Positions 8,014 through 12,024 of a stretch of DNA of 64,000 nt are shown in pieces. The translations under genes and the position numbers were made by a program. Source of the stretch: Curvularia clavata (lineage: Eukaryota); contig CP089274.1 of assembly GCA_023920165.1 (NCBI GenBank), positions 3,410,001 through 3,474,000 on the forward strand, given 5' to 3'. The notes beneath the pieces were generated by a model. That model did no database searches. It was not told the DNA's origin and saw nothing but the letters and a program-made list of their open reading frames with translations. Numbering within the stretch: the stretch's first letter is position 1; every line of letters begins with the position of its first letter.

Positions 8014-8903
8014 TCTAGACTGTGCTGTCGCGGATGCCGTTGACGGACGGGAGACAATGGACGACTTGATTTGTTTTGGCAGTGCAACCCCGGCGTCCGG
8101 GCTCTGTCGTGGTGCGGTGCGGTGAGTTGCGCAGCCAGCTTCCGCAGAGAAAGGAGGGGTGGTGGTCCGGGTGCGTGTGCTATGCCACGGCCGCAAAACA
8201 AGCGTGCTTACCTAAGGCGTCGCGCTGCCAGGCCGCCCTGTGAGGGTCCTTTGCGGTCCTCGCTGTTTTCGCTGCGTGCTCACCAAAACCTCTCAGTGTA
8301 GACTGCCCATACAATCTCGCGCCTGCGAAACCTTTGGTGAGTCGTCCCCGCCTGCAAATGACGAAGTCGCTTCATCACCAGCACCACTTTTCGCAACCAC
8401 ACCCTTTTTGCACGCGTTTTCCCGGCTCATTTCCCCCAACTACTCCTCTCCCAGCCTTCTTTCTCAATTCTTGCGACTGTCGTCGCTTTCGATTGATTCT
8501 TCGTCGCCGTCACCACCGCGCTCATCCTCGGCCCATCCCATACTGACCGCAAAACAGACCTTTATCAACCCCTTCGATTTTGCTGAATCCCGCTACTTTG
8601 GTGAGTACTCGCTCCTTCTCTCTTCGTAAAATCGCGCATCATCGCGTCGTGCCGTGGTGTTTTGCGACCGCGTCACTCCACGCGCTGCCCAAAGAACCGC
8701 TGCACCCACCACCACTACCCGCGCATTCACCACTACCCAAGATCCCTTTGCCTGCAACCCTGCTAGCGCTGGCCTTTGCCTATATTGCTGGCCTGCCCAC
8801 CACTTACCGCACCTTTCTCCTTTACTTTCTCTCCAAAAATCCCTCTCCCTACTCAACCACCATAGCTCTAATACTCAACAACAGCACATCAACCACCACC
8901 ACC

Positions 8904-9387
8904 ATGCCCAAGGAAAAGACCACCCGCAAGGCTGCCCCCAAGGCCAAGAACGACAGCGGCAAGAAGAAGAAGGGTAAGTTTGCTCACGTGCATTTGCCTA
9001 CTGCTCATTTGCTAACCACTGCAGACCCCAACGCCCCCAAGCGTGGTCTTTCCGCATACATGTTCTTCGCCAACGAGCAGCGCGAGAAGGTCCGCGAGGA
9101 CAACCCCGGCATCAAGTTCGGTAAGTTGAGCACTGTGAGCCCTCTTTTAGTGTGTTTCTAATCTTCTCTCAGGCGAGGTTGGCAAGCTTCTCGGTGAGAA
9201 GTGGAAGGCGCTCAACGAGAAGCAGCGCCAGCCATATGAGGCCAAGGCTGCTCAGGACAAGAAGCGCTACGAGCAAGAGAAGGCCGCTTACCAGGTATGC
9301 TCCATTCTCTGCAAAAGAATCCCCAACCCCTTGACATTCTGCTAACAAACCTAGGCTGCCGACGATGAAGAGGAAGAGTCCGAGTAA
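8904..9387 (+). CDS. NHP6: Non-histone HMG-box protein 6; exons 8904-8973, 9025-9120, 9173-9294, 9355-9387
   Basis: Spliced product [96 protein letters not shown]... is a classic Nhp6 HMG box. All introns are GT-AG with CTAAY branch sites. Confidence 0.96.
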
Positions 9388-10143
9388 AGGAAGCCACTTA
9401 CCAGTGTCTTCTATTACCCTCCAACGGCAACCATGTTGACATCCTGTCGTGCGAGGCCTGGGCCTGACTCTCCCACTCTCTCTCAATTTCTTATGTGATC
9501 TTCCTAGTTTTAATGGGTTCGTAGCTTCCTCGGAGGAATATCTTCGGCTAGCAATTCTGTGGTTCATTGCGATAAGGATAAGTCACAGTTAGTCTCATTT
9601 CAGCGCTGGTGGCTATCGGTCATGATGTTTGGGGCGTCTCATCTTACTTTTGACGCTGTGAAAAGGAGAAACATCACGAAGCTCATGACCAAAGTCTATG
9701 TGTACACTAGTCAAAACTGCGGTATGGAGAATATTTTGCTGCTTAGCTCGTCATGTACTTTTGCGAGTGTCGAGTGATAGACGTGGAGTAGGGGGTGCAC
9801 AGCGTAGCACTGCTCACACTCGCGGTAACTGACATCCCAGCTACGCCTCCCCTAAATGCGTGATGCTGTAGGTGAAGCATAGCATCAGGGCCTTGACAAC
9901 ATGACAGACCCTTTTCCACATATTCACAAGCATAACCCCTTAATCCTGTCATCTTCTGAACTCATTGACCCGACTCCACACCGCTGAACCGGGTACCAGC
10001 ATCTCTCACTCGCGCCTTCCCCGTACAAAGCCACCCCGACCAAACCACTCTTTCTCTCTCTAAACATCCAACTGTATTATACCCCCATCTACATGGCATT
10101 TCTAATTCTCCTTTTCCCCAACAAATCAAAGAAGCATCTTGTA

Positions 10144-10288
10144 GCGTCGTTGGGCTAGTGGCTATGCTATCGCCTTCCCAGCAAATACTGCAAAGAAAGG
10201 CGGGGATCACGGGTGTAAGTGAATGAATAAAACTAGAGAGTTCGAAGACGAGTGCTAACAGATATAAAGTCGAACCCCGTACGGCGCA
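10144..10288 (+). tRNA. tRNA-Gly (anticodon CCC) with a canonical tRNA intron (10181-10197) and a spliceosomal-type intron (10215-10269); exons 10144-10180, 10198-10214, 10270-10288
   Basis: Acceptor stem GCGTCGT/ACGGCGC with discriminator A; D arm GGCT-AGTGGCTA-TGCT; anticodon stem TCGCC/GGCGG with loop TT-CCC-A|A; variable loop GGATC; T stem ACGGG/CCCGT with loop T|TCGAAC. Spliced length is 73 nt, and a T-run lies just downstream. Confidence 0.9.
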
Positions 10289-10296
10289 GTACTTTC

Positions 10297-10302
10297 TTTT
10301 TT
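10297..10302 (+). terminator. RNA polymerase III oligo-T terminator of the tRNA-Gly gene
   Basis: TTTCTTTTTT immediately 3' of the tRNA, with T6 at 10297-10302. Confidence 0.75.
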
Positions 10303-10686
10303 GTGGATATTCTTGCTGGATTGGGGTTGGGGTTGTCTGGGAAGGCGGGGAGGCGGGGTGAGGGCGGAAAGTGGTTGCTCTTATTGAGTATGATGTCACG
10401 AGTAGAATGCGATGGAAGGTGCATCCGTTCTCTATGTGATATTTGTATTCAAGACTTGTAACTTTTTTTCGATAGACGGGCGGTGCAGTGGTAAGCATGT
10501 TTTGATTCATGTACATGCCTCAGGATATCTTTCGAATTCTAGATTCGTCATCTCTCAAGCACAATGCAACAAACATACTTGGGAAGCGGAGCAGCAGGCC
10601 TGGGCCTAATGCAGTTCATGATCGTATGATCAATTCCAACATGTATACCACGTCCACACCTTTTTTTTGTTGCCAACTCACTCACG

Positions 10687-11308
10687 CTATTCCCTCTGCA
10701 ACACCACCATCAACCCCATTATCCCCAGCATGACCTGCTTCAGCCATGGGTGCTCGCTCAGCAGAATGGTAACGTATCCAACAAATGGTATGAAGCCAAC
10801 CACACTCCCAATAACATCTTCTTTGCGGTTGAGAAACGACTGGTCGCGAGCGTAGAGTTCGGTGTCGTCTGCAAGGTTGTTGTCACCTTTTGTGAGCAGT
10901 CGGAGCGGTGTTTTACTGTATCCCAATCATCAGCTCAGAAACACTTTACCAAGACCGTGACAGCGGCATTTATGCTACTGCCGGGTCCGCAAGATATGAT
11001 CAACGCAAGACTCACCCTCCACCATATCTCCTCACCACCCGATGCACAATCGGAATGTCCTTGCCCTTGACATTATACACGACAATCTCTCCTATCTGTG
11101 TGTCCATGCCTCTGTTCCAGAGGAAAAGCAAGTCGCCTCGTTGGAAAGCGGGTTCCATAGATCCGGAGAGTACGACGACAATAGGAGACGGTGAGTTTGA
11201 GACGACGGACAGGCCTTTCCACATCATAAATGCAGTGGAGAGGACGAGTGCGAAGTTCAGGACTTGCGCGGCGAGTTGTCGCGGTTGCATGCCTGCGACG
11301 CCGAACAT
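10687..11308 (-). CDS. SEC11: Signal peptidase complex catalytic subunit; exons 11308-11016 and 10915-10687 (173 aa)
   Basis: [28 protein letters not shown] and LLTKGDNN motifs. One GT-AG intron restores the frame. Confidence 0.96.
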
Positions 11309-12024
11309 GCTTGCGGCTTGGGTGTGGATTTGTCTATGTGTAAGATTCAGGCGTAGAGCGAAGTTCTCAAATTGGTTGTTGACAATTCCTGCTGCAGGCG
11401 GTGATTGGTAATTGTATCCCGTAGTAGGTGTGTCGTGGGCGTTCGGACAGCGCAGCAGGTTTGCGCGTCGTGAGATTATGGTCGCGAGGGTTGATGCCAG
11501 ATGGCTCCTTGGATTGGTTCTTTGCGGCCAGCTTAGTCAACTCCCGAGCGGTGGCCTCCCCAAACTCCGCAACTTACTAGTGTGATCTACAATCTCACTT
11601 GCCTATATTTTGGAAATTCCAAAACGACATCTTTTATTGTTCAAGGCTAAAAAACAGTAGTTTTGTGGGAAAGGATTTGAGGTTCAAAGAATGGTCGGAA
11701 TATGGGCTTTCGAAGAACATGGTGTATTACCTGGGTTGGTTACTTTGGGCTACCTTCAGCTCATTCTACCTACCAGGGCCACAGATCACATCATCAGAAC
11801 AACTATCTCGGTCTATCTCACATGGAATATCAAGAGATCTTACATTCCTCTTTCCCCTCGAATTACCTTATGCCAGAACTGATGCAATTCGCCTGCCGCT
11901 CTTATACCGCCCTGCTAAGCCTAGACCTTGGCCTTTTCTCATGCCTACGACCGAGCTCACTTCTTCATCCACATCTTTAGTATACCAATCCACTATCTGC
12001 GACAACCTCAAAAGTTGAATATAC

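Follow-up and report, generated by a model that had tools for sequence, protein, structure and literature searches.

Here we describe a fungal glycine tRNA gene that carries a short tRNA intron in its anticodon loop and an mRNA-type intron in its T-loop, and that probably needs both of the cell's splicing systems to yield a tRNA. The explanation that fits the observations best, and in which we place moderate confidence, is a functional nuclear tRNA-Gly(CCC) gene whose precursor is cut by two unrelated machineries. The gene lies in the window, by which we mean the whole stretch of 64,000 nt of DNA that was analysed, between an NHP6-like gene and SEC11. The features of the locus, in window positions, are as follows.

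8901-9708, plus strand: NHP6-like HMG-box gene, 106 aa after exon joining, with three short introns
10144-10288, plus strand: tRNA-Gly(CCC) gene, whole, 145 nt (37 + 17 + 17 + 55 + 19)
10144-10180, plus strand: exon 1 (E1), 37 nt, with the 5' strand of the acceptor stem, the D-arm, the 5' strand of the anticodon stem and the anticodon loop as far as A37
10151-10161, plus strand: A-box region, within exon 1, judged by the A-box consensus
10177-10179, plus strand: anticodon CCC, within exon 1
10181-10197, plus strand: intron 1 (I1), 17 nt, at the canonical tRNA intron position 37/38
10198-10214, plus strand: exon 2 (E2), 17 nt, with A38, the 3' strand of the anticodon stem, the variable loop, the 5' strand of the T-stem and T54
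10215-10269, plus strand: intron 2 (I2), a 55-nt mRNA-type (GT-AG) intron between T54 and T55, splitting the T-loop and the B box
10215-10220, plus strand: 5' splice site of I2, GTAAGT, a 5' site shared with two nearby NHP6 introns that RNA confirms
10240-10248, plus strand: B-box-like element in I2, with the core TTCGAA at 10241-10246
10254-10260, plus strand: branch-point motif of I2, GCTAACA, with branch A at 10258; its GCTAAC (10254-10259) is also present in two confirmed NHP6 introns
10268-10269, plus strand: 3' splice site of I2, AG, invariant in five variants of the gene
10270-10288, plus strand: exon 3 (E3), 19 nt, with T55-C60, the 3' strands of the T-stem and the acceptor stem, and the discriminator A
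10297-10302, plus strand: T6 run, resembling a Pol III terminator, 9 nt past the gene end
10388-11536, minus strand: SEC11 signal-peptidase gene, convergent with the tRNA gene

Anatomy of the tRNA-Gly(CCC) gene

The acceptor stem is formed by GCGTCGT and ACGGCGC and contains a U4.G69 pair. The loop of the D-arm is AGTGG, the anticodon stem pairs TCGCC with GGCGG around the anticodon loop TT-CCC-A, and the variable loop comprises 5 nt. The T-stem is composed of the strands ACGGG (5') and CCCGT (3'), with TCGAAC following I2. When both introns were removed, ARAGORN reported a 73-nt tRNA-Gly(ccc), and removal of I2 alone gave a tRNA with a 17-nt intron in the anticodon loop. No tRNA was reported for the intact precursor or for the form from which I1 alone had been removed. 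Likewise, ARAGORN with default settings and Rfam (at the gathering threshold and also at E values up to 10) returned no tRNA on the intact window, as expected with 55 nt sitting in the T-loop.

Two program outputs were set aside. A weak Rfam match to a lncRNA on the minus strand (13 bits, E 3.2) was dismissed as noise. The label that ARAGORN gave to the I2-free form of the window gene, Trp(cca) with an intron at position 36, was rejected: a cut at the canonical 37/38 position leaves the anticodon CCC, and the corresponding forms of four relatives (see below) are called Gly(ccc). The preliminary description of this DNA had placed a 17-nt intron (10181-10197) at 37/38, a 17-nt middle exon and a 55-nt GT-AG insert in the T-loop; the split by coordinates and the ARAGORN results agree with that anatomy to the base.

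Conservation of both introns at an orthologous locus

Relatives of the gene were sought in a metagenome collection with a pattern that ran from the anticodon stem through an I1 of 0-30 nt to T54. Because the pattern stopped at T54, the scan was blind to I2, and genes with or without this intron could match. Nine loci were found, representing four distinct genes (L001, identical to L004 and L006; L002, identical to L003 and L009; L005, identical to L007; and L008), which together with the window gene make up the five variants referred to throughout. The metagenome contigs are DNA, since the introns of the neighbouring genes are present in them. In all nine loci an insert of 50-54 nt follows directly after T54 (51, 54, 52 and 50 nt in L001, L002, L005 and L008, respectively), and no gene lacking I2 occurs among the matches of the scan. 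An NHP6-like match lies upstream on the same strand in four of the nine loci and a convergent SEC11 downstream in eight, the loci without a neighbour match being those with a short flank. At least four other diverged lineages have retained this two-intron layout at their orthologous NHP6-tRNA-SEC11 locus.

I1 occupies the same site in all variants and measures 17 nt in the window and 11, 21, 21 and 13 nt in L001, L002, L005 and L008. Only 2 of its 21 alignment columns are invariant, with a mean pairwise identity of 0.40. The third nucleotide from the end of a tRNA intron (-3) pairs with position 32; here it is an A in four variants and a G in the window, and can pair with U32 in all five. I1 shows the position, the short variable length and the free sequence drift of canonical tRNA introns of the type cut by the tRNA splicing endonuclease (SEN).

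The exons are nearly unchanged. In E1, 35 of 37 columns are invariant among the five variants, the last 11 nt being fixed by the scan pattern; E2 is identical in all variants, a stretch that the pattern likewise fixed. E3, which the pattern left free, has 18 of 19 invariant columns, with a single change from G57 to A57. Over the pattern-free exon stretches (the first 26 nt of E1, and E3) the variants are 95-98% identical, and their differences are confined to three places, all of them compatible with a tRNA: U4.G69 versus C4-G69, one extra base in the D-loop, and a purine at position 57.

I2 has a fixed internal pattern. Its invariant blocks are GTA.G at the start (G1, T2, A3 and G5), TTCGAA (6 of 6 columns), GCTAACA (7 of 8) and the terminal AG (2 of 2), and the AG ends 10-11 nt past the branch A in every variant. 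Between these blocks lie three variable parts, in which the identity of the window to the others is 0.20, 0.14 and 0.29, near random. ARAGORN recognised a tRNA in none of the five intact precursors; after removal of I2 it found a tRNA with an anticodon-loop intron in all five, called Gly(ccc) in the four relatives, and after removal of both introns each of the four relatives yields a 72-nt tRNA-Gly(ccc). From the pattern of invariant and drifting columns, selection has kept the tRNA exons, the position of I2, its three spliceosomal signals and the TTCGAA hexamer.

I2 as a spliceosomal-type intron

RNA-derived contigs prove the three introns of the nearby NHP6-like gene as well as the single SEC11 intron, four in all. 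They measure 51, 52, 60 and 100 nt, start with GTAAGT, GTAAGT, GTATGC and GTGAGT, and contain GCTAAC in two cases. In the I2 of the window, the branch A at 10258 lies 11 nt ahead of the 3' G. By every sequence criterion (5' site, branch point, AG and length), I2 is an ordinary intron of the host organism, with the features of a U2-type GT-AG intron. Its 5' site is weaker in three of the five variants (GTATGA, GTAGGA and GTAAGC).

The frequency with which such a restoration arises by chance was assessed by removing in silico each GT..AG candidate of the 64-kb window (40-100 nt, with CTRAY in the last 5-35 nt, on both strands). A tRNA recognised by ARAGORN was restored across the junction by 1 of 1,959 candidates, and this candidate is exactly 10215-10269. 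When the borders of I2 are moved by one base in either direction, the TTCGAAC of the T-loop is not restored, as can be read directly from the letters.

A candidate B box inside I2

At the DNA level, I2 divides the B box, which corresponds to the T-loop region, between T54 and T55. Within 300 nt on either side of the gene, none of the five variants contains an exact match to GWTCRANNC, the B-box consensus. The element at 10240-10248 inside I2 matches 8 of the 9 positions of that consensus in all five variants, the mismatch being at C61 in the window and at G53 in the relatives. It is the only one-mismatch B-box match within 300 nt on either side that keeps its position in the five variants, and its TTCGAA always lies 7 nt ahead of GCTAAC. 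No spare B box is present within 300 nt behind the terminator. The best reading of the intronic TTCGAA is a relocated B box, for which it is a candidate; more speculatively, it might be the relic of a duplicated T-loop. In the predicted fold of the window precursor the intronic GTTCGA pairs with the start of E3, and this pairing was considered as the cause of the conservation. It was rejected, as the relatives have TCAAAC and cannot form it.

Further features are of the Pol III type. The A-box region (10151-10161) is invariant in the five variants, a run of T5-T6 stands at +9 in all five, and no run of at least four T occurs inside any of the five genes. All four relatives (L001, L002, L005 and L008) also have a TATA element (TATATAAT or TATATGAT) exactly 52 nt before the mature 5' end. 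The window has no TATA at -52; the aligned stretch at 10092-10100 contains TACATGG, and a TATTATA is located farther upstream.

RNA-derived contigs over the gene

The assemblies of four sequencing runs (X1, X2, X9 and X10), which are not on record as RNA, were compared with the window. All four are derived from RNA, because introns of NHP6 and SEC11 are joined out in their contigs. Among the seven joints listed for the four runs, none corresponds to 10214/10270 or falls anywhere within 10144-10288. Contigs that keep both tRNA introns were present in three of the four runs: record 1 of X1 (9353-10391), record 14 of X2 (9353-10915) and record 8 of X10 (9956-10330, depth 5.6). In X1 and X2, the three NHP6 introns are spliced out of the very contig in which the tRNA introns stay. 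X9 has no contig cover at 9958-10388.

The contigs that span the gene extend beyond the T-run, so at least some of this RNA did not arise as a Pol III transcript that stops at that run. Such contigs carry no strand, merge overlapping transcripts, drop rare forms and miss tRNAs of 70-90 nt, and are therefore weak evidence. They show that unspliced RNA over the gene exists; they neither show nor exclude splicing, and are silent on its order. The claim of the preliminary description that two machineries act on one pre-tRNA is well supported by the sequence comparison, through the splice signals of I2 and the lack of a bulge-helix-bulge (BHB) motif in all five variants and through the variable I1 at 37/38, but gains no support from the RNA contigs, which contain no joint in the tRNA gene.

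A proposed pathway and the order of its steps

We propose that the gene would be transcribed by Pol III, as its intact A box, the absence of internal T-runs and the T5-6 run at +9 suggest. Because I2 cuts the native B box in two, TFIIIC would use the B-box-like element within I2, in the manner of the S. pombe U6 gene, and in the relatives the TATA element at -52 may assist. The spliceosome would then remove I2 in the nucleus, and the T-loop and the D/T elbow could form only afterwards. Processing of the ends and export of the RNA would follow, and I1 would be removed last, by SEN and ligase.

The order of spliceosome first and SEN second is derived from compartments, the spliceosome being nuclear and SEN residing on the mitochondrial surface in ascomycete yeasts. 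If the host is an ascomycete, as its introns and neighbouring genes suggest, the spliceosome, acting in the nucleus, must come before SEN, acting in the cytoplasm. For S. cerevisiae as well as S. pombe, whose lineages split more than 500 million years ago, SEN is placed on the surface of mitochondria (PMC6169838). In yeast, end processing is nuclear and precedes export, with tRNA splicing afterwards, according to the corresponding sections of PMC10275265 and also of PMC6169838. The former further describes extensive contacts of TSEN54 with the mature tRNA domain, recognition of the tertiary structure of the mature tRNA by Los1/Xpo-t, and pre-tRNAs that are often capped (PMC10275265, in the sections concerned). 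The spliceosome-first order is plausible and, we infer, the more likely one.

With 55 nt between T54 and T55, the T-loop and the contacts it makes with the D-loop presumably cannot form. In the predicted folds, the T-stem still closes around I2 in four of the five variants, so the helix recognised by RNase P and RNase Z (acceptor stem and T-stem) might form before I2 is removed. The strict claim that removal of I2 gates all later maturation is thus not compelled by these models.

We also consider a more far-reaching reading, which we regard as possible but on the doubtful side. I2 would be a working part of the gene that took over the function of the B box it destroyed, placing a TFIIIC site inside a spliceosomal intron. 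It would tie the supply of tRNA-Gly(CCC) to the nuclear spliceosome before any tRNA-specific step, and couple Pol III, the spliceosome and the tRNA endonuclease in a fixed order. The tRNA would be one member of a broader class of spliceosome-dependent tRNAs, as yet undescribed, in filamentous fungi.

Alternative explanations

The tRNA might instead be released from a Pol II transcript, either by read-through from the NHP6-like gene or from a separate transcription unit behind the TATA element, with co-transcriptional splicing of I2 followed by release through RNase P and RNase Z. This route, too, would require two machineries, though neither the T-run nor the B-box-like element would then serve as a working signal. 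The RNA contigs that link the NHP6 mRNA to the tRNA region and pass the T-run (X1 to 10391, X2 to 10915, X10 over 9956-10330) are in keeping with such a transcript, as are the split B box and the conservation, upstream in the relatives, of the TATA at -52 and of a palindromic CGG..CCG block near -153. Efficient co-transcriptional splicing, however, predicts loss of I2, and the contigs retain it though the NHP6 introns are gone. The T5-6 run at +9, the absence of internal T-runs in all five variants and the conserved TTCGAA fit Pol III. Normal mRNA ends also lie outside the gene, in that the NHP6 contig of X9 stops at 9708 and SEC11 contigs start at 10388 (X9) and 10418 (X1). We regard a Pol II origin as unlikely. 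It is very unlikely, in our judgement, that the gene is a dead or dispensable relic in which I2 always stays in the RNA and a functional tRNA is never produced, its DNA being kept for another role, such as binding TFIIIC or marking a boundary between NHP6 and SEC11. The broken B box and the absence of spliced RNA from the contigs of four runs would agree with a relic. GGG codons can in principle be read by tRNA-Gly(UCC), by the wobble rule, and tRNA-Gly(CCC) may hence be dispensable. Yet a role of the DNA alone would not preserve splice signals, and the 5' site, the branch point, the AG and the branch-to-AG distance of 10-11 nt are kept in all five variants. Moreover, identity is 95-98% in the pattern-free exon stretches and near random in I1 and in the variable parts of I2, pairing survives the few exon changes, and removal of I2 restores a perfect cloverleaf in every variant.

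Two further alternatives concern the enzymes and their order within a functional tRNA gene. SEN could cut both introns if I2 were a non-canonical tRNA intron of the BHB type, as in red and green algae, nucleomorphs and Archaea; BHB-mediated introns at non-canonical sites, the T-arm included, are described in the pertinent part of PMC3978253. We examined every register of a BHB motif (two 3-nt bulges and a 4-bp helix) at the borders of I2, and none is formed: the best central helix has 2 of 4 bp in the window and 2-3 of 4 bp in the four relatives. This is no better than random placements, of which 4,081 of 5,000 (each 55 nt long) score at least as high as the I2 of the window. I2 on its own is also almost without structure (predicted at -0.2 to -5.7 kcal/mol among the five variants), and what it conserves are spliceosomal signals, not pairings. 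Cutting by SEN alone is accordingly highly improbable. The preliminary description had named cutting of both introns by the same enzyme as the finding that would overturn it; with no BHB motif at I2 in any of the five variants, such cutting is unlikely. Alternatively, both machineries may act in no fixed order, or with SEN first, for instance if part of the SEN of this fungus resides in the nucleus or if RNA bearing I2 is exported. The predicted closure of the T-stem around I2 in four variants lends this some support. It is set against the mitochondrial SEN of both yeasts tested, more than 500 million years apart (PMC6169838, in the part on SEN location), the binding of TSEN54 to the mature domain and the need of Los1/Xpo-t for tertiary structure (PMC10275265, sections as above), a structure that presumably cannot form with 55 nt in the T-loop. 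We consider the absence of a fixed order quite unlikely, and retain spliceosomal removal of I2 followed by removal of I1 by SEN as the preferred pathway.

Relation to known systems

The closest parallel is the S. pombe U6 gene, a Pol III gene with an intron that the spliceosome excises and that contains the B block (PMC5855946, where it is mentioned with reference to Tani and Ohshima 1989 and Frendewey et al. 1990). As in U6, a gene for a small stable RNA of the Pol III type carries a short GT-AG intron, here with a conserved B-box-like TTCGAA in I2 whose function is predicted. For the present gene, splicing and Pol III transcription are predictions. Unlike U6, the host RNA is a tRNA and not a component of the spliceosome, and the origin by reverse splicing proposed for U6 has no obvious counterpart. 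I2 also differs in splitting the native B box itself and in sharing its precursor with a second intron, of the tRNA type.

I1 resembles canonical eukaryotic tRNA introns (at 37/38, removed by SEN and tRNA ligase) in position, in short variable length and in drift. I2, by contrast with these, is located at 54/55; its internal architecture is fixed, and GT, CTAAC and AG are present in it. Non-canonical or multiple tRNA introns mediated by BHB motifs are described for Cyanidioschyzon merolae, nucleomorphs, green algae and Archaea in the relevant section of PMC3978253. As here, those genes can have more than one intron, some of which lie in the T-arm and some of which disrupt the A or B box, and transcription driven by an upstream TATA has been proposed to compensate for the disrupted boxes (PMC3978253, same section). 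The tRNA endonuclease cuts those introns, which are defined by a bulge-helix-bulge fold, whereas I2 is without such a fold.

A 2025 paper and a 2023 review, in the sections that cover the subject, treat the classes of nuclear introns as separate and unrelated (PMC12530127 and PMC10275265). In these accounts spliceosomal introns belong to Pol II transcripts, mRNAs among them, the U6 of some fungi is an oddity, and SEN is the enzyme that cuts tRNA introns (PMC12530127 and PMC10275265). Our literature search, the coverage of which did not extend to subscription journals, found no paper on a tRNA gene with an intron of the spliceosomal or mRNA type; so far, mRNA-type introns in small-RNA genes of the Pol III type are known for U6. 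To this the present locus adds conservation in nine of nine matches at an orthologous locus by a scan blind to I2, a clean footprint of spliceosomal signals and a conserved intronic B-box-like element. If confirmed, a conserved tRNA gene dependent on both systems would break the separation between spliceosomal and tRNA introns. It would also explain why tRNA finders miss such genes, as ARAGORN and Rfam do here. The gene would further provide a natural substrate for asking whether Pol III transcripts are spliced, how a split B box is replaced, and which enzymes need the T-loop elbow.

Neighbouring genes and flanking elements

All three introns of the NHP6-like gene are joined out in contigs of X1, X2 and X9, and the second and third joints are present in X10; the mRNA contig of X9 ends at 9708. 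NHP6 helps Pol III transcription of U6, according to a statement in PMC5855946. The adjacency of NHP6 and the tRNA gene is conserved in the relatives, and may be plain synteny. The 100-nt intron of SEC11 (10916-11015) is joined out in all four runs. RNA contigs of SEC11 begin near 10388-10418, at a distance of some 100 nt from the terminator of the tRNA gene.

Small differences separate the RNA-derived contigs from the window. All four runs have an extra T behind 10660, and in X1 and X2 position 9970 is a T and position 11397 an A; either the strains differ or the window sequence contains small errors.

Upstream of the tRNA gene, a block of the form CACACCGCC.AACCGGGTACCCGCATC lies at 9979-10003 in the window and at about -153 in L001, L002 and L008. 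It contains a CGG-N4-CCG palindrome in the relatives, one half of which is altered in the window, and resembles a binding site of a zinc-cluster factor. An X9 contig ends and an X10 contig starts at 9956-9958, just ahead of this block. Downstream of the T-run lies a conserved G-rich block, reading GGTGGGGT.TG.TTTTTGCC.GGGGTGTCGCGTGGGAG in the relatives, about 20-70 nt past the terminator and with a second T5 run inside. Its counterpart in the window, at 10316-10365, consists of GGGGTTGGGGTTG...GGCGGGG repeats.
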